Below, piece by piece: positions 162 through 45,854 of a DNA stretch of 64,000 bases (the first letter of the stretch is position 1; each line of letters starts with the position of its first letter). The position numbers and the translations under genes were made by a program. Where the stretch lies: NCBI GenBank assembly GCA_900551615.1, contig URWN01000001.1:73767-137766 (forward strand), given 5' to 3'. Below the pieces are notes generated by a model. The model did no database searches. It was not told the DNA's origin and saw nothing but the letters and a program-made list of their open reading frames with translations. This DNA comes from an uncultured Clostridium sp. (GTDB taxonomy: Bacteria; Bacillota; Clostridia; TANB77; CAG-508).

Positions 162-275
162 ATGATAGAAATGATTTTATTACATATTATAAAATTACTT
201 TTTTTTGCACTATGTGCAGAAACTATTATCACATTTGCCTTAATAATAGCATTAGCTAAAATTTTGAGCAAATAA
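162..275 (+). CDS. 37-aa hydrophobic peptide, candidate type I toxin (MIEMILLHIIKLLFFALCAETIITFALIIALAKILSK)
   Basis: GAGGAGG at 147-153 lies 8 nt before ATG 162. One predicted TM helix with a basic C-terminus. Not in the ORF track because it is under 60 aa. Track ORF 80..271(-) is its antisense shadow. Confidence 0.45.
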   Translation: MIEMILLHIIKLLFFALCAETIITFALIIALAKILSK

Positions 276-281
276 TAAAAG

Positions 282-312
282 CCATATCTCTGCCATGCCT
301 GTGGAGATATGG
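282..312. terminator. hairpin CCATATCTC / GAGATATGG shared by the two convergent transcripts
   Basis: 9-bp stem 282-290 / 304-312. T-rich sequence follows on both strands (TTTAT on +, CTTTTATTATTT on -). Confidence 0.5.
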
Positions 313-369
313 TTTATAAAAACTAAAACATTGGCAACCACATTTTGTGGTCTCTTATTTTCTAAATAC

Positions 370-398
370 ATTATAAAATATAAAAAACAAAAAGTCAA
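370..398 (-). promoter_or_regulatory. minus-strand SigA-type promoter TTGACT-17-TATAAT, candidate sRNA (antitoxin) promoter
   Basis: Reverse complement of 393-398 is TTGACT and of 370-375 is TATAAT, with a 17-nt spacer. It points toward the hairpin at 282-312. Confidence 0.55.
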
Positions 399-413
399 GA
401 AAGTAGGGATAAA

Positions 414-968
414 ATGAAAGAACAATTTTTAGAATTACTAAAACAAGTCAAAAGAGAAGGAATAAACGAACTAATAGAATTTATAGAAAAAACAGACTTC
501 TTCACAGCACCAGCAAGCACAAGATTTCACGGAAACTACGAAGGTGGGCTAGTAGAACACAGCATGAAAGTATACGAAATACTAAAACACAAAGTAGAAA
601 CAAACATAGAACCACTAAACGTAAACCCAGAAACACTAATACTAGTGCCACTACTACATGATCTATGCAAAGCAAACTTCTACAAAATAGACTATAGAAA
701 TGCCAAAAATGCACTAGGAGTATGGGAAAAAGTACCATATTACACAGTAGACGACACAATACCATATGGGCATGGAGAAAAATCAGTAATGATGATAACA
801 GAATACATGAAACTAACACCAGAAGAAAAATACTCAATACGTTGGCACATGGGATATACAGAACCAAAAGAACTATATAACACAATAGGAGCTGCATACA
901 AAAAATATCCATTAGCATTACTAATGCACGAAGCCGACTTAGAAGCAACATATTTTTATGATATATAA
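414..968 (+). CDS. HD-domain metal-dependent phosphohydrolase
   Basis: 184 aa. H...HD signature (RFHGN, LLHDLCK) plus later His/Asp residues (RWHMG, HEADLEA). Confidence 0.8.
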   Translation: MKEQFLELLKQVKREGINELIEFIEKTDFFTAPASTRFHGNYEGGLVEHSMKVYEILKHKVETNIEPLNVNPETLILVPLLHDLCKANFYKIDYRNAKNALGVWEKVPYYTVDDTIPYGHGEKSVMMITEYMKLTPEEKYSIRWHMGYTEPKELYNTIGAAYKKYPLALLMHEADLEATYFYDI

Positions 969-998
969 TGTCCAAAAGGGACGGTTCTTTTTGGACAT
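968..998 (+). terminator. hairpin ATGTCCAAAA-GGGACGGTTCT-TTTTGGACAT (GGGACG-loop terminator family)
   Basis: 10-bp stem 968-977 / 989-998 immediately after the stop codon. The A/T tracts form part of the stem. Confidence 0.5.
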
Positions 999-1028
999 TA
1001 CAAATAAAGTTAATAGAGGGAGAAAATT

Positions 1029-1658
1029 ATGTTAGCATATATAAAAGGAAAACTAGAGATGAAAATGACAGGATACATAGTAATAGACGTAGGTGGATTA
1101 GGCTATAAAGTATTCATGTCAGAATCAGCAATTGATAAATTAGGAAATATAGGAGAAAACGTAAAAGTACACACATATTACAAAGTAAGAGAAGACGACA
1201 TCAGTATATTTGGTTTCAACAGTCTAGAAGAACTAAGAATGTTTGAACTACTAATATCAGTAAGTGGAATAGGTGCAAAAACAGCAATAGCAATGCTAGA
1301 CGTATGTGAGCCAACAGAATTTGCACTAGCAATAATATCAGAAGATGTAAAAACATTAACACAAATACCAGGAATAGGTGCAAAATCAGCACAAAGAATA
1401 ATTCTAGAATTAAAAGACAAAATGAAAAAAGAACAACAAATACAAGAATTAACAAAAGCTACAAAAGGACAAAATTCAGTAAAAACAAAACTAGAAGAAA
1501 GAATAGAAAACGAAGAAAAAATTCAAGAAGCAATGGCAGCATTACAAGTTTTAGGATACAACAAAAAAGAAATTGAAAAAGCATTTGATAAACTAGCAAA
1601 AGAAGAAATGACAACAGAAGAATTAATAAGAAAGGGATTAACAATACTTGGAAAATAA
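1029..1658 (+). CDS. ruvA: Holliday junction DNA helicase subunit RuvA
   Basis: N-terminal OB-fold region (IKGKL...IDVGGLGYKV), two HhH motifs (SGIGAKTA, IPGIGAKSAQRI) and a C-terminal domain III. GGGAG SD upstream. Confidence 0.9.
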   Translation: MLAYIKGKLEMKMTGYIVIDVGGLGYKVFMSESAIDKLGNIGENVKVHTYYKVREDDISIFGFNSLEELRMFELLISVSGIGAKTAIAMLDVCEPTEFALAIISEDVKTLTQIPGIGAKSAQRIILELKDKMKKEQQIQELTKATKGQNSVKTKLEERIENEEKIQEAMAALQVLGYNKKEIEKAFDKLAKEEMTTEELIRKGLTILGK

Positions 1659-1660
1659 AA

Positions 1661-1690
1661 CGGGATTAAGTGTCCACCACACAAAATTCT
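1661..1690 (+). repeat. GC-rich intergenic hairpin motif, copy 1 (CGGGATTAAGTGTCCACCACACAAAATTCT)
   Basis: Near-identical to 58951-58981 and to the reverse complement of 54317-54347. Confidence 0.7.
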
Positions 1691-1714
1691 TGTAAAAATT
1701 TTAGGAGAAAAACT

Positions 1715-2959
1715 ATGAACAATAATGAACCATTAGCATACAGAATGAGACCAAAAACATTGGAAGAGTATGTAGGTCAAGAACATGTATTAGGAAAAGA
1801 CAAAATTTTATACAGAACAATAAAAGCAGACAGACTATCTAGTATTATATTATTCGGACCTCCAGGATGTGGAAAAACATCACTAGCAAAAGTAATAAGC
1901 GAAACAACAAAATACAAATTCTATAAAATAAATGCAGTAACAGCAGGAGTATCAGACATAAAAAAAGTAATTGAAGAAACAAAAAATTTTATGATAAATC
2001 CAACGGGAAAAAGCATACTATTTATAGATGAAATTCATAGATTTAACAAATTACAACAAGATGCACTACTTCCATATGTAGAAAATGGTCTTATAATTTT
2101 AATTGGAGCAACAACAGAAAATCCATATTTTGAAGTAAATAAAGCTTTAATATCAAGGTCAATGGTTATAAAACTAGAACCATTAACAGAAGAAAATATA
2201 TATACAATTTTGAAAAATTCATTAACAAGAGAAGATGGACTAAAACAATATAGCATAAAAATTGAAGACGAAACATTAAAAAAATTAGCAGCAATATCAA
2301 ATGGAGATGTAAGAACAGCATTAAATGGATTAGAGATAGCAGTACTTACAACTAATATGGATTCAGATGGATACATACACATAACAGATGAAGTAATAAA
2401 AAACTGTGTTCAAAGTAGAAAAGCAATATTCGATAAAAAAGGAGATACACATTACGACAATATAAGTGCATTTATAAAATCGATGAGAGGTTCAGACCCA
2501 GATGCAACAGTATTTTATTTAGCAAGAGCATTAAACGGTGGAGAAGATCCAATGTTTTTAGCAAGAAGAATTGTAATTGCTGCATCAGAAGATGTAGGTA
2601 TGGCAAATCCAAATGCATTAGTTGTAGCAAATGCAGCAATGCAAGCAGTACATATGGTGGGAATGCCAGAAGCAAGAATATTACTTTCAGAGGCGGCAGT
2701 ATATGTAGCAACGTCAAAAAAATCAAATGCATCATATTTAGCAATAAATAAAGCATTAGAAGATGTATCAACTAAAGACACGGGAACAATTCCTATGCAT
2801 ATAAGAAATGCACCAATAGAAGACATGAGAAAATTAGGATATAACGAGGGTTATTTATATCCACATGACTTCCCAGGACATTGGGTAGAACAACAATATT
2901 TACCAGAAAAAATGCTAGGAACAAAATACTATATAAAAGATGAAAACATTCCAGAATAA
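1715..2959 (+). CDS. rarA: replication-associated recombination protein A (RarA/MgsA AAA+ ATPase)
   Basis: Walker A GPPGCGKTS, Walker B ILFIDEIHRF, and MgsA C-terminal region (HYDNISAFIKSMRGSDPDA). Start chosen at ATG 1715 after AGGAG. The track ORF starts at GTG 1670, inside the repeat. Confidence 0.9.
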   Translation: MNNNEPLAYRMRPKTLEEYVGQEHVLGKDKILYRTIKADRLSSIILFGPPGCGKTSLAKVISETTKYKFYKINAVTAGVSDIKKVIEETKNFMINPTGKSILFIDEIHRFNKLQQDALLPYVENGLIILIGATTENPYFEVNKALISRSMVIKLEPLTEENIYTILKNSLTREDGLKQYSIKIEDETLKKLAAISNGDVRTALNGLEIAVLTTNMDSDGYIHITDEVIKNCVQSRKAIFDKKGDTHYDNISAFIKSMRGSDPDATVFYLARALNGGEDPMFLARRIVIAASEDVGMANPNALVVANAAMQAVHMVGMPEARILLSEAAVYVATSKKSNASYLAINKALEDVSTKDTGTIPMHIRNAPIEDMRKLGYNEGYLYPHDFPGHWVEQQYLPEKMLGTKYYIKDENIPE

Positions 2960-21870: not shown

Positions 21871-21973
21871 TCTTTTGTTAAAAATTATAACATTATTTTA
21901 TATTAAAGATATTTAAAAATCAATAAATTTAGTAAATTTTAGAAAAATAAAGTTACTAAATAATAATTTCATA

Positions 21974-22162
21974 GTGATGTTTATTGATATATTCTTCTTT
22001 GTAAGTAACCAAATGTGATTGGAGCAATATTAGAATTTATTAAATATTTTTTGGACAAGAGTTCACTTTAGTGGAAGGGAGTACAAAAAATATTTTAGAA
22101 AATCTTATATTGTGTATTGAACCGAGGTCACTTACAAATATCAATATATCAATAAACAGCAC
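21974..22162 (+). repeat. imperfect-palindrome intergenic element, copy A (37-nt arms plus ~115-nt conserved core)
   Basis: Arms 21974-22010 and 22126-22162 are complementary at 32/37 positions. The core is about 90% identical to copy B. Confidence 0.8.
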
Positions 22163-22212
22163 ATGGAAAATCAGTATTTATTAACAAAAAATCTAAAAGG
22201 AAAGGAAAAAAT

Positions 22213-34197: not shown

Positions 34198-34210
34198 TTT
34201 TATAATAATA

Positions 34211-34421
34211 TTCAAATTGCATATATCTATACCTTTTTGAAGGTATTGTTTGATTGGAATGAAAAATAGAACTTATTTCTAAAAAATATGAGGAATGTTC
34301 ACGGGAAAAGGCAAGAGCCTTTAAGCCTGAGTGAAAGAGGCTCATATTTTTTAGTTATAAGTTCTTTTTGAATGAAATGAAGAAAATAACTTCCAAAAGG
34401 TATAGATATATGCAATTTGAA
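34211..34421 (+). repeat. imperfect-palindrome intergenic element, diverged copy D (27/27 perfect arms)
   Basis: 34211-34237 is the exact reverse complement of 34395-34421. The interior shares TGATTGGA, GTTCAC..GGAARGG and ATATTTT(TT)AG blocks with copies A and B. Confidence 0.75.
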
Positions 34422-34583
34422 AAATATAAAAAACAAGTTCACACAAAATTTACACAAAAAATAACATTTGGGAATAATATAAAAATAAAATACTCATATA
34501 ATATAAATATAAAAATATGGGAGCAGAAAAATTGAAAGTTAAATAATAATCAATTAAAAGCACCGAAGAAAGGTGGAAACCAA

Positions 34584-41575: not shown

Positions 41576-43070
41576 AATAAAAAACGTACTTTCATCAGTA
41601 AAAGTAAAATTATTTTTAACACTAAGCACAACAGTCTTATTAATAATACTATTCTTAATAATAGTAAATAACTTTGCCCTAGAAAAATTTTATTTATATA
41701 AAAAACAAAACACATTAAAATCAGTATATGAATCGTTAAACGACTATTATAAAACACCAGGACAAGACAATGACTTACAAACAGAACTTGAAAAACTATC
41801 AATAAAAAACAATTTTGACATTTTAATAAAAGATAATAATGGAATCAATTTATATACAACAAACAAAAACTTTTCAACAGTAATAGGAAGTATAAATGAC
41901 ATATTAGACAAAGTGCAAGGCGGAAAAGAATTAGAATCAAACGATAATTTTACAATAAAGAAACAAAGAGACTCTAAAAATGGACTATCATATATGATGT
42001 TATCAGGAAAACTAGAAAATGGATATTTTTTATACATACGTATACCATTAAATTCAATACAAGACAGTGTTAGTATATCAAACAATTTCTTATTGATGAT
42101 GGCAGGATTTACAATATTAATTGCCTCAATAATGGTAACAATAGTCTCTAAAAAATTTACAGAACCAATACTAGAACTAAACAACATAGCGAAAAAAATG
42201 TCAAACTTAGATTTCAGCCAAAAATATAAAGTAACAAATGCAAGAGACGAAATAAACGACTTAGGAAGAAGCATAAATACTATGTCAGACAAACTAGAAA
42301 GAACAATAAAGCAATTAAGAAACAGTAACATAGAACTAGAAAGAGACATAGAAGAAAAATCAAAAATAGACGAAATGAGAAAAACATTTATATCAGATGT
42401 ATCTCATGAGCTAAAAACACCAATAGCTCTTATTCAAGGATATAGTGAAGGCTTACTAGAAAATGTAAACAATGATGAAGAAAGTAGAAAATTCTATGCA
42501 GAAGTTATACTAGATGAAACAAATAAAATGGATAAGCTAGTAAAGCAACTACTAGAACTAATGAAACTAGAATATGGAAAAAGAGAATTTAACAATAAAG
42601 AATTTAACATTGTAGAACTTGAAAAAGAAGTGATAAGAAAAACAAATGTGATGATAGAAGAAAAACAAGCAGAAATAAAATTTGATGAAAATGAAGATAT
42701 AAGAGTATTTGCAGATGATTTCTATATCGAACAAGTTTTAACAAATTATTTAACAAATGCAATAAAAAATGTAAAAGAAATGTATGGAGAAAAATACATT
42801 AAAATATCAAATGAAATAAACAAAGAAGAACAAAAAGTTTGCATTAAGGTATTCAACACGGGAAAACAAATTTCAGAAGAAAACTTAAACAGGATTTGGA
42901 ATAGATTTTATAAGGCAGATGAATCAAGACATAGAGAAGATGGAGGAACAGGAATAGGACTTGCATTTGTAAAAGCAATAATGAGTAACTATGATAATAA
43001 ATACGGAGTAAAAAATTTAGAAAATGGAGTAGAATTTTATTTTGAATTAGATATGAGACAAAAGGGATAA
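41547..43070 (+). CDS. sensor histidine kinase (two TM, HAMP, HisKA, HATPase_c)
   Basis: H-box FISDVSHELKTPIA, N-box LTNYLTNAIKN, G-box GGTGIGLAFVKAI. The start overlaps the end of the regulator gene and the exact codon is uncertain. Confidence 0.9.
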   Translation: MWDINLKLNKIKNVLSSVKVKLFLTLSTTVLLIILFLIIVNNFALEKFYLYKKQNTLKSVYESLNDYYKTPGQDNDLQTELEKLSIKNNFDILIKDNNGINLYTTNKNFSTVIGSINDILDKVQGGKELESNDNFTIKKQRDSKNGLSYMMLSGKLENGYFLYIRIPLNSIQDSVSISNNFLLMMAGFTILIASIMVTIVSKKFTEPILELNNIAKKMSNLDFSQKYKVTNARDEINDLGRSINTMSDKLERTIKQLRNSNIELERDIEEKSKIDEMRKTFISDVSHELKTPIALIQGYSEGLLENVNNDEESRKFYAEVILDETNKMDKLVKQLLELMKLEYGKREFNNKEFNIVELEKEVIRKTNVMIEEKQAEIKFDENEDIRVFADDFYIEQVLTNYLTNAIKNVKEMYGEKYIKISNEINKEEQKVCIKVFNTGKQISEENLNRIWNRFYKADESRHREDGGTGIGLAFVKAIMSNYDNKYGVKNLENGVEFYFELDMRQKG

Positions 43071-43094
43071 TCCTAATTTGTCTCATATTTTCTT
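43053..43094 (+). terminator. intrinsic terminator ATGAGACAAA-loop-TTTGTCTCAT (GAGACAA family)
   Basis: 10-bp stem 43053-43062 / 43077-43086, T-rich tail. The last 5 codons of the kinase lie in the stem. Confidence 0.75.
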
Positions 43095-43262
43095 GTCAAA
43101 AAGTGTCGAAAATTGCGATGAAAAGTTCTTTACAAAATAAGAAAAATGTAGTATTATAAATACAGTTTTAATCAAACTACACGAGAGTGTTTTTATCTAA
43201 AAAATTTTTTCGAAAAAATTAATCCAAAAACAAAAATCAAAAAGGTGGGTGAAAAATATGAA

Positions 43263-43451
43263 ATGTTAAAATACACCACAAGATACGTTAATATTGTAAG
43301 TTTATTAATCACTATAATAATATTTATTTCTATTAATTTAATTACCCCTTTATTTAATAAAATAAATAAATACCCTATCTCAAATTTATTTAAAAAAAAT
43401 TATATATTAGTAGAACTAAAATCAAATAGCAATATTAATCAAGATACATAA
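43263..43451 (+). CDS. possible 62-aa small membrane protein
   Basis: GGTGGGTG about 11 nt upstream, one TM helix (IVSLLITIIIFISINLI). Weak support. Confidence 0.3.
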   Translation: MLKYTTRYVNIVSLLITIIIFISINLITPLFNKINKYPISNLFKKNYILVELKSNSNINQDT

Positions 43452-43560
43452 AGATAAAACAGTATATTTGGAGGCACAAGAAAAAATAATGATAGAATAT
43501 AAGCTTGCGGCAATAATGAAAAATATATTGTAAAATATAATAAATAAGTGCGAACACAAA

Positions 43561-43592
43561 CTACCCATTCCAAAATTTTATGGGTAGTTTTT
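43561..43592 (+). terminator. intrinsic terminator CTACCCA-loop-TGGGTAG plus T5
   Basis: 7-bp GC-containing stem 43561-43567 / 43581-43587, followed by TTTTT. Confidence 0.7.
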
Positions 43593-43603
43593 AATTGATA
43601 ATA

Positions 43604-43808
43604 GTTTCAATGTTTATAATTGCTACATGATGATATTTGTATTTGACTGAATGTGATTGAAACAATATTAAAATTTATTAAATATTTTTTGGACAAGAGT
43701 TCACTTTAGTGGAAGGGAGTCCAAAAAGTATTCTAGAAATTATTATATTGTGTATTGAACCAAAGTCAAGTACAAATATCATCATGTAGCAATTACAAAC
43801 ATGAAAAC
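43604..43808 (+). repeat. imperfect-palindrome intergenic element, copy B (38-nt arms plus conserved core)
   Basis: 43610-43647 pairs with 43765-43802, with only one G-T wobble and one A-C mismatch. The core is about 90% identical to copy A. Confidence 0.8.
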
Positions 43809-43908
43809 ATTGTATATTAACATTTTTATTACAATTATGAAAATATTATTGAAAAAAACAAACAAAACAATTATAATAAAATAGACGAAAGAGAAAGGAA
43901 GAAAAAAT

Positions 43909-45630
43909 ATGAAAAAAAGAAATATAATTATAATATTAGCAGTAATTGCAGTAATAGCAATATCAGCATGTATCATAGTAAACAAAATTCAAAAAGAAAA
44001 CAAAAAATATGAAATAGCACAAATAAACGAATACAAATATTTTGTAGTAAAAGAAAACGAAAAATATGGTGTAATAAATACAAATGGAGACATAATAATA
44101 GAGGCAAAATATGATGACATAAAAATTCCCAACCCAGAAAAGGCAGTATTCATATGTTATGAAAATAAAAAAACAAAAGTCTTAAATGAAAAAGGAGAAG
44201 AAATATTTACACAATATGAAGACATACAACCATTAAGACTAAAAAATGTAATAAGTGACTTAATGTATGAAAAAACAACACTAAAATATAGCAAAAATGG
44301 AAAATACGGAATTATAGATATAGAAGGAAAAAAGATAACAAATCCAATATATGAAGATATAGATACACTTCAATTTAAAGAAGGGGAACTACTAGTAAAA
44401 AAAGACGGAAAATATGGAGTAATCAACATAAAAGGAACAACAATAGTAAAAACGCAATATGATGGAATAGAAAGTGACAGATATTACGAAGAAGAAACAG
44501 GATACAAAAAATCAGGATACATAGTAAGCAAAACAACAGATGAAGGATATAGATATGGATATGTAAACATTGAAGGAAAGCAAATAATTGAAAACAAATA
44601 CAATGATTTATATAGAGTAACAGACATAAATAGCAAAAATGTTTATATAATATGTGCAGAAAATGGACAATATGGCTTAATGAAAGACGGAAAGCAAATT
44701 ATAAACAACGAATATCAATCATTAGTTTATAACGAAAGTAATGATACAATAACAGCATTAAAAGGAAAAAAATATGGAGTATTTTCAATTGATGGAAAAC
44801 AAATAGTTCCATTTGAATATAAACAAATAGACACAACAGGAGAATATATATATGCAACATCAAACGATGAAAACGTAAAAATATTTGACACAGATGGAAA
44901 AGAAGCAAACATAGACTCTAATCTAGCAATACTAGATGTAGAAAATACAGATTATAAAATTTATATTAACACAGCAGATGGAAAAACAATTTACACAATA
45001 TATAAAAATGGAAAAGCAATTACAAAAAATGAATACGTATATATAGAATACTTAAACAACAACTATTTCATAGCATGTAATTCAGAAGGAAAACTAGGGG
45101 TTATAGATGAAAATGAAAATACAAAAATAGCATTTAATTATAACTCAATACAAAAAATAGAAGGAACAGACCTAGTGCAAACAACACAAAATGATACAAA
45201 TACAATAGAAATATATTCAAAAGACTTATCTAAAATTACAGAATTAAAAAATGGAAATATTGAAAAACATACAGATTATATAAAATTATATAATAATGAT
45301 GAAATCAAATATGTATCAAAAGATGGAAAAGAAATTAAAAATATAGAATTATTTAAAGACAACAAAATATTTGCAAATAAATGGGGAGACAAATGGGGAT
45401 TTGTTGACAAGAATGGTAACAAAATAGTTGACTACAATTATGACAAAGTAACAGAAGTAAATAAATATGGTTTTGCAGGAATTGAGAAAGATGGACTTTG
45501 GGGAGTTGTAGACAGCAATGGAAAAATAATTGTAGAACCACAATATAAATTAAATGATATTGAACCAACATTTATTGGAGAATATTATCAAGTTACATAT
45601 GGAAATGGAGAAATCTATTATACAAAATAA
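43909..45630 (+). CDS. WG-repeat (KWG-type) protein with N-terminal membrane anchor
   Basis: 573 aa with more than 10 repeats of the form KYG(V/I)I(N/D)..G..I(I/V)....Y(D/E).I. Confidence 0.75.
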   Translation: MKKRNIIIILAVIAVIAISACIIVNKIQKENKKYEIAQINEYKYFVVKENEKYGVINTNGDIIIEAKYDDIKIPNPEKAVFICYENKKTKVLNEKGEEIFTQYEDIQPLRLKNVISDLMYEKTTLKYSKNGKYGIIDIEGKKITNPIYEDIDTLQFKEGELLVKKDGKYGVINIKGTTIVKTQYDGIESDRYYEEETGYKKSGYIVSKTTDEGYRYGYVNIEGKQIIENKYNDLYRVTDINSKNVYIICAENGQYGLMKDGKQIINNEYQSLVYNESNDTITALKGKKYGVFSIDGKQIVPFEYKQIDTTGEYIYATSNDENVKIFDTDGKEANIDSNLAILDVENTDYKIYINTADGKTIYTIYKNGKAITKNEYVYIEYLNNNYFIACNSEGKLGVIDENENTKIAFNYNSIQKIEGTDLVQTTQNDTNTIEIYSKDLSKITELKNGNIEKHTDYIKLYNNDEIKYVSKDGKEIKNIELFKDNKIFANKWGDKWGFVDKNGNKIVDYNYDKVTEVNKYGFAGIEKDGLWGVVDSNGKIIVEPQYKLNDIEPTFIGEYYQVTYGNGEIYYTK

Positions 45631-45680: not shown

Positions 45681-45747
45681 TATTTTAGAAATTGTTATAT
45701 TGTGTATTGAACTGAAAGTAATTTTAAATATCATTATATAGCAATAC
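45681..45747 (+). repeat. right-half copy (C) of the palindromic element, carrying the promoter-like module
   Basis: TATTTTAGAAATTGTTATATTGTGTATTGAAC...TATCAT aligns with the right halves of copies A and B. The left arm and left core are absent. Confidence 0.7.
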
Positions 45748-45854
45748 TAAAACAAAATATAATATATTGTAACCAAAAGAAGTTTAAAAGCATAGAAAAT
45801 AGTAAATAATAAAAACAGAATATAAAAGATAAAAACACAAAAAAGGAGGCCAAT

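Follow-up and report, generated by a model that had tools for sequence, protein, structure and literature searches.

A palindromic element upstream of a WG-repeat gene belongs to an undescribed MITE-like family with an invertible core in gut Clostridia

In the genome of an uncultured gut Clostridium a long palindrome, copy B, lies upstream of a gene for a WG-repeat protein. Is it a promoter, a structured RNA or a mobile piece of DNA? The original prediction, made from the 64,000-nt stretch analysed here (the window), took it for one of three related palindromes (copies A, B and C) with arms evolving by compensatory substitution and a right half carrying a promoter aimed at the WG-repeat gene. 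The reading that we favour is a different one. Copy B is probably, though by no means certainly, a small non-coding and MITE-like 'foldback' element of mobile DNA; it has more in common with bacterial MITEs than with a dedicated promoter or an RNA gene.

Copy B and the family to which it belongs

The palindrome at copy B is real, as judged from the complementarity of its arms and from its predicted fold. The plus strand folds with -84 kcal/mol (z = -13.1; none of 200 shuffled sequences folded as well) and the minus strand with -76.8 kcal/mol. Reading of the sequence confirmed the predicted pairing of the two 38-nt arms (43610-43647 with 43765-43802), interrupted by a single A·C and a single T·G mismatch, and the weaker pairing reported beyond them was also seen. 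Together with the family termini, the latter places the limits of the element at about 43585 and 43821, where degenerate versions of these termini are found (left, TTAATTGATAAT...; right, ...CATTGTATATTAAC, also given as ...GTATATTAAC). The outer arms delimited by repeat search are 115 nt apart (Table 1), and the 24-nt apical loop AAGAGTTCACTTTAGTGGAAGGGA contains the motif GAGTTCAC-N4-GTGGAAGGGAG, which is characteristic of the family. No open reading frame of at least 50 aa is contained within 43585-43821. The small reading frames in the core were dismissed as mere stubs of the ATG-TGA type on reading the sequence, and a minus-strand frame starting with TTG (43782-43985) lies mostly outside the element, only its 5' tail overlapping the right end. 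Contig L001 carries an identical copy of copy B.

Table 1. Features of the window discussed in the text (coordinates are window positions).
Feature	Position	Strand	Basis or remark
Copy B, full element, subtype T1	~43585-43821	+	Hairpin extent, family termini, family alignment
Left outer arm of copy B (inverted repeat)	43604-43648	.	45 nt, 91% complementary to 43764-43808
Right outer arm of copy B (inverted repeat), with -10-like TATCAT at 43777-43782	43764-43808	.	Repeat search
Conserved ~115-nt core of copy B: bubble, inner stem, apical loop, inner stem, bubble	43649-43763	+	25-copy T1 alignment
Inner hairpin of copy B, arms 43662-43694 / 43719-43751	43662-43751	+	Nested inverted repeat search
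Hairpin and T-run, terminator-like, directly upstream of copy B	43558-43592	+	Fold -13.8 kcal/mol
Promoter-like pair TTGAAC-16-TATCAT; -35 in right bubble of the core, -10 in right arm	43755-43782	+	Promoter scan
Promoter-like pair TTGAAA-17-TATAAT, 11/12 matches, outside the element, downstream of copy B	43849-43877	+	Promoter scan
Copy A, subtype T1, upstream of comM; arms 21967-22010 / 22126-22169	21953-22186	+	Repeat search, fold
Copy C, decayed right half	45681-45773	+	HMM positions 85-125 only
Element D, assigned to T3	34199-34433	+	Fold -91 kcal/mol, z = -12.9

An independent terminator had been placed immediately upstream of copy B. Its hairpin is indeed there, pairing within 43558-43590, but a consensus terminator scan gave no call at this position. 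The hairpin is preceded by a 14-codon reading frame (MIEYKLAAIMKNIL, 43489-43533) with a GGAGG Shine-Dalgarno sequence; this frame is 100% conserved in L001-L005 and could encode a leader peptide or a micropeptide. In L002-L005 a gene for a 562-aa protein (258-1946, minus strand) is situated between the histidine kinase gene and copy B. This gene is absent from the window, where the corresponding gap extends from 43070 to 43440, and the only match of its product was to a weak N-terminal methylation (prepilin-like) motif (E = 0.003).

Copy A, bounded by GTTACTAAATAAT... and ...GTATTTATTAAC, has the same architecture as copy B according to both repeat search and folding. The claim that the two copies share their core while their arms diverge held up, a core-spanning stretch of 146 nt being 88% identical and the arms differing. 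Copy C, on the other hand, is not the further palindrome that it was thought to be: only a right-half remnant is left, comprising the right inner arm, the right bubble with TTGAAC, the right arm with TATCAT and the GTAAC terminus. The junction GTAAC/CAAAA of this remnant is kept across species. A further relative, element D, escapes the HMMs built for subtypes T1 and T2 because its sequence is too divergent, yet its architecture is the same. It has 49-nt outer arms, an inner inverted repeat (34264-34292 / 34341-34369), a bubble with GAATGAAA, a GAATG motif and the loop GTTCAC...GTGAAAGAGG (GTTCAC...GTGAAAG) with a 28-nt insert. The window also contains another inverted repeat of 48 nt (65-112 / 351-398; 73% complementary, 238 nt apart).

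The family to which we assign copy B is dispersed and non-coding, and was found only in AT-rich, small-genome uncultured Clostridia of the gut. The family was searched for by means of the apical motif GAGTTCAC-N4-GTGGAAGGGAG, which occurs at 29 places in contigs of a one-genome-per-species collection (one being a GC-rich chance match) and at 40 places in metagenome contigs, mostly from the human gut (four GC-rich chance matches). All real matches were to metagenome-assembled genomes of uncultured Clostridia or to human-gut contigs, with up to 7 per genome, and at least 60 distinct copies were collected. The elements are ~180-290 nt long and sit as solitary copies, in any orientation, in intergenic DNA. 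The phage, plasmid and viral collections contained no family match, and an origin from such replicons was accordingly set aside. Rfam yielded no hit at gathering score over the 64 kb and only chance-level hits to the locus at E values up to 10.

Subtypes T1, to which the window copies A and B belong, and T2 have their loop, bubble motifs and architecture in common; genomes with at least two copies contain either T1 or T2, never both. Among 25 T1 copies the core is 95-100% conserved, the arms just 50-90% per column. A T2 subgroup (L007, L014, L019 and L031) possesses an extra, GC-richer outer inverted repeat (TTTTGGACCGGGTACATTTTTTTAC / ...AAAAAATGTACCCGGTCCAAAA), and these ~270-290-nt elements look as if they were lodged inside a bidirectional terminator. 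Another T1/T2-like core, whose apical loop has 3 nt (GAGTTCACAAAGTGGAAGGGTG), is found in L096 (positions 1-150) directly beside a T3 element upstream of comM, the two being nested or in tandem. A seeming hybrid in L042 (200-560), T2-like in its left half and exactly T1 in its right half with the join at the apical loop, was set aside as possibly chimeric, given its non-complementary arms and a contig coverage of 1.8x.

Mobility of the elements

Full elements end in GTTAC...GTAAC. Longer forms of these termini, GTTAC(T/A)nTATAATG... and ...CATTATAnnGTAAC, are common to T1, T3 and some T2 elements (L025). Nine copies (8 loci) with recognisable termini were examined for target-site duplications. 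Perfect 8/8 duplications flank the elements in L018 (TTTAATAA), L025 (TACTATTT) and L034 (TAATCTTT), and the orthologous pair L009/L059 shows a 7/8 duplication; in cross-locus comparisons, 8/8 matches were found in 0% and 7/8 matches in 2.8%. The flanks of copies A and B match at just 5-6 of 8 positions, a weak signal in low-complexity sequence.

Both copies are absent from some relatives of their host. Copy A is missing from strains whose ComM is 100% identical, its place being taken by a 61-nt palindrome with the same termini, and copy B from species in which the WG protein is 74-79% identical; one strain variant of copy B has lost 63 nt of its core. The elements thus insert with 8-bp target-site duplications and are present or absent between strains. 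The properties by which MITEs are defined, as summarised in PMC10969869, are in substance those of this family. The identification of a known MITE with conserved terminal repeats had been named as an outcome that would overturn the original prediction; what was found is MITE-like in its termini, its duplications and its presence or absence, but belongs to a family that has not been described.

The 61-nt palindrome (GTTACATTTTAAAGTTTCATATAT...ATATATGAAATAGTAAAATGTAAC) is the common allele at the copy A site, occurring in L077, L078, L080 and L082-L095; it is an 'arms-only' form with the termini of the family and no core. Upstream of the WG orthologue, L106, L107 and L109 have a short AT-rich hairpin at the site of copy B. 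The arms of this hairpin (AAGTACAAATATGATGTAG / ACAACATATTTGTAT) are similar to the inner arms of copy B but in inside-out order, an arrangement that neither insertion nor inversion explains.

A candidate partner that mobilises these elements would be an insertion sequence bounded by GTTACnnTATAATGG repeats with 8-bp duplications. Searching ~0.6 Mb of loci with the terminus pattern, we found no autonomous partner and no further terminus-like sites bounding a gene.

Some sites have kept their element while its interior changed. A sister lineage (ComM 91% and WG 90% identical) carries T3 elements at the comM and WG loci, where the window has T1, and despite this change the right junctions are the same, GTAAC/AAAAATCT at comM and GTAAC/ATTTTT at WG. 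Since junctions are kept across lineages and species, the sites must be old and their interior exchanged. Simple transposition does not explain the replacement of T1 by T3 at two loci; conversion between copies through the conserved termini may do so.

Inversion, arm covariation and constraint on the core

Loci were paired by their flanks and then aligned, and inversions were read from the assembled contigs. In four orthologous pairs the flanks and arms match and the ~115-nt core is inverted. L049 and L065 have identical arms and flanks that are 97-98% identical; their cores differ at 38 of 117 positions as they stand and at 2 of 117 after re-inversion. The core is likewise inverted between L029 and L069 (flanks ~97% identical). 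In L009/L059 two inner arm-arm mismatches have switched sides together with the core and the outer mismatches have stayed, which locates the crossover in a 22-nt identical stretch in the middle of the arms. The fourth case concerns the T3 element upstream of an identical ComM, orthologous to the copy A site: L097 shares its right arm with L098/L096 and has the opposite half of the core adjoining it. Therefore, the core and the inner parts of the arms invert by recombination within the arms. An assembly artefact is an unlikely cause, as perfect arm stretches do not exceed 45 nt, shorter than the k-mer length of the SPAdes-named contigs (which we take to be k = 55), several arms are mismatched (L009/L059, L069), and mismatches between the arms changed place together with the core, which is what a genuine crossover would bring about. 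No flip is seen in about 18 other orthologous pairs. The three flipped pairs retrieved via the loop motif are all T1, and none of ~10 T2 pairs is flipped; at copy B the six related contigs (L001-L005, L050) do not differ in core orientation.

Inversion bears directly on the arms. The mirrored arm substitutions on which the original prediction was built were upheld in 21 T1 members: 32 of the 36 pairs of the outer helix have changed on both sides and 95.9% of the cells are paired. None of 500 shuffles reached any of these measures, and slid controls paired at 41-48%. Compensatory selection of the RNA type, by which the pattern had been explained, is nevertheless not needed. The swaps are strictly Watson-Crick (CG, GC, UA and AU at one pair), with few G·U and almost no one-sided intermediates, a pattern that arm conversion fits better than does selection on RNA pairing. 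Since the arms recombine as inverted repeats of DNA, arm-to-arm conversion can mirror substitutions in bulk. A probable conversion event is seen in L029/L069, where 10 of the 63 right-arm positions differ, as compared to 2.6-2.9% in the flanks, and where the arms of L029 are near-perfect complements and those of L069 are not. We suggest that recombination or conversion between the arms keeps them complementary, so that 'mirrored' substitutions would arise without stepwise compensatory selection. A signature that looks RNA-like, a stable hairpin with compensatory changes, can be produced by recombination or conversion of DNA arms, which calls for caution in covariation-based RNA discovery.

The core evolves differently. 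Orthologous cores are 97.5-100% identical, as opposed to 74-94% for the mostly coding flanks; the locus-specific arms, too, are better conserved than the flanks in those pairs that have diverged most. Conservation is far stronger in the core than at the termini, contrary to what is usual for MITEs, and this suggests a function beyond that of a 'selfish repeat'. Over the whole hairpin G·T and A·C mismatches (75 vs 98) reveal no plus-strand excess, a comparison that says nothing about the arms, since core and arms flip relative to each other. In the inner stem, which flips together with the loop, the asymmetry is evident. All its one-sided variants are G·U on the loop-defined plus strand (8 columns in T1, 6 in T2), and A·C or C·A cells are confined to a doubtful 2-bp helix that was predicted within the bubble. 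This bias hints at a role of the plus strand in single-stranded form; it does not tell RNA and single-stranded DNA apart. The two strands of the T1 bubble are direct repeats of each other (TGTGATTGAAAC and TGTGTATTGAACC), and a short palindrome, GTTCAC-N4-GTGGAA, forms the apex; its tetraloop varies (UUUA, GAGA, GAUA, UUCA, UUAU) over a fixed CAC/GUG stem. The bubble repeats or the apical palindrome could be a protein-binding site. Slower change than in neighbouring genes and the strand-specific G·U bias would be accounted for if the core is kept by selection, probably as a module for recognition or structure that acts in single-stranded form, be it RNA or DNA.

Is the conserved part, then, a promoter? 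Both hexamers, TTGAAC (43755-43760) and TATCAT (43777-43782), were found 16 nt apart as described, and recur in copy C, but copy A has TATCAA in place of the latter. The case for a promoter signature is similarly divided. In T1 the 16-nt spacing is fixed over a variable spacer sequence; among 29 copies, 26 have TTGAAC and 21 have a TAnnAT hexamer. Mainstream T2 elements, however, have ATAAGC where T1 has TTGAAC, and a promoter is therefore not a family-wide property. Promoter-like matches are no commoner in this AT-rich region than chance would give (25 found, 24 expected from shuffles). That the promoter of copy B is aimed at the WG-repeat gene was not borne out: element orientation is random with respect to the flanking genes (configurations -- 9, -+ 8, ++ 6 and +- 4), the core inverts, and the WG gene has a conserved promoter-like site of its own. 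This site (43849-43877), which is probably the promoter of the WG-repeat gene, is kept upstream of WG orthologues that have no element, and the patatin gene likewise has a promoter-like stretch that is conserved, downstream of remnant C. A dedicated promoter or 5'-UTR element as the role of the family was rejected on these grounds, the random orientation and the separate sites of the WG and patatin genes. What remains plausible from the hexamers is a weak outward promoter in T1: the TTGAAC of the core would pair with the TAnnAT of whichever arm adjoins it, and a flip would redirect transcription. This split promoter may be a by-product or serve an accessory purpose; it would not be what defines the family. 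On the minus strand, an inward TTGACT-16-TATAAT pair (43742-43769; 11/12 matches, -35 in the right arm, -10 in the core) is only partly conserved in T1. Minus-strand transcription of the core would expose a CUCCCUUCC loop, similar to an anti-Shine-Dalgarno sequence.

These observations invite an alternative in which the core is a programmed phase-variable switch, operated by a dedicated, possibly genome-wide site-specific recombinase, and in which the split promoter of T1 toggles between the neighbouring genes. Such a switch would be in keeping with inversions between strains whose flanks are 95-100% identical (two of the three loci common to two related strains are flipped), with the fixed 16-nt spacing of TTGAAC and TAnnAT, the -10-like segment being the best conserved part of the arm, with the position of 9 of 10 T1 copies next to at least one gene start, and with conservation of the core beyond neutral expectation. 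We consider it possible but unlikely. A motif scan for tyrosine and serine recombinases found no gene in the window or adjoining any copy; over all loci it returned only two Xer-like ORFs, neither of them adjacent to a copy. The crossover arms differ between copies and share no recombination site, if one disregards an inner segment that is semi-conserved. No -35 is present in T2, conserved promoter-like sites belong to the WG and patatin genes themselves, and some copies lie between convergent genes. A related proposal, to which we give about the same low weight, makes the core an orientation-dependent functional module carried by a mobile palindrome, perhaps a binding site for a protein or a hairpin of RNA, with a split promoter in T1, the elements being 'mobile invertons' flipped by a trans-acting recombinase that co-evolves with the core type. 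If this were true, the comM-dprA genes (competence) and surface or WG-repeat proteins would be subject to switching in gut Clostridia.

We find it still less probable that the hairpin works as RNA, either as the product of a gene or in cis on an mRNA (for example as an sRNA, a stabiliser or a target of RNase III), with arms selected for RNA pairing. The very stable folds, the strong covariation, the G·U but no A·C pairs of the inner stem on the loop-defined plus strand and the variable apical tetraloop over its fixed stem would all suit an RNA. Set against them are the random orientation relative to genes, promoters and terminators, the lack of an Rfam match, the strict Watson-Crick arm swaps with very few G·U cells and the dispensability or decay of copies in strains. 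Moreover, flipping of the core relative to the arms would alter the sequence of a full-length hairpin RNA, and the target duplications speak for mobility of DNA.

Least probable of all, and in our opinion very doubtful, is a single-stranded DNA site, i.e. a plus-strand hairpin recognised by an HUH/Y1-type transposase or serving as a priming or recombination site (REPIN/RAYT, IS200/IS605 ends, attC, sso), for which one may cite the conserved unpaired bubble and loop next to variable stems, the strand-specific G·T bias of the inner stem, the long vertical persistence and the joint replacement of the core type at two loci; Y1/HUH transposition is not known to yield 8-bp target duplications such as are found here, no HUH/Y1-type gene was seen near the copies, and the termini are by inspection unlike the attC core site GTTRRRY.

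The mobile foldback element remains our preferred reading of copy B. Its architecture is that of the family: GTTAC...GTAAC termini, two long locus-specific arms and a ~115-bp core that is near-identical between copies.

Comparison with known systems

Several classes of hairpin-forming sequences resemble the family in part. 6S RNA and other long-hairpin non-coding RNAs share with it a hairpin of ~200 nt, a large central bubble and a terminal loop; they were rejected, as were other described hairpin RNAs, in view of the absence of an Rfam match, the multi-copy state (up to 7 per genome), the target duplications, the inversion and the loss at strain level. The 8-bp duplications and the non-matching termini speak against attC sites of integrons, REPINs and IS200/605-type ends. 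As to attC, the termini GTTACTA / TAGTAAC are unlike GTTRRRY, the copies are solitary, and no integrase motif was found in the loci. The REP/REPIN, ERIC, bcr1, RUP and BOX repeats are, like the present elements, dispersed intergenic hairpins that persist vertically and undergo concerted evolution within a genome. REPINs moved by RAYT are not known to leave target duplications, whereas the present family has them; no RAYT was seen, and the elements are larger, with a three-part build (arm, bubble, inner hairpin).

Invertons, for instance fimS, the invertible promoters of Bacteroides and the RecV switches of C. difficile, likewise consist of a segment bounded by inverted repeats that is met in both orientations in close relatives, with a promoter-like element inside whose direction would change. 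The present family differs in that its inverted repeats are not the same between copies and in that it is multi-copy and mobile, with target duplications. If flips prove frequent within populations, the elements would be a new and easily scanned source of phase variation beside competence and surface-protein genes.

The closest analogue appears to be the Correia element (CREE/NEMIS) of Neisseria, a likeness drawn from descriptions and not from sequence comparison. Correia elements have a TA target duplication and a conserved 26-bp terminal repeat, whereas the family duplicates 8 bp of varied sequence, has locus-specific, covarying arms of 45-60 nt, is conserved in its centre and resides in a different phylum. 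Both are small, non-coding, intergenic MITEs or MITE-like elements that can be folded as a hairpin over their whole length and occur in many dispersed copies. Promoters, cleavage by RNase III and inversion are all described for Correia elements (PMC10969869); the inversion, reported to take place between the terminal repeats (PMC10969869, citing Elbeyioglu 2017), has its counterpart in the family described here. The sigma-70-like promoter hexamers near the ends of Correia elements, which can drive neighbouring genes, are matched in T1 by promoter-like hexamers.

In summary, the family is an undescribed, MITE-like one from poorly known, small-genome Clostridia of the gut. Its unusual features are a core that far exceeds the termini in conservation, long covarying arms, recent inversions and the replacement of the core type at fixed junctions. 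Compared with the systems above, it combines mobility of the MITE type with an extremely conserved, invertible centre, persistence at orthologous sites and exchange of the core type at an unchanged junction.
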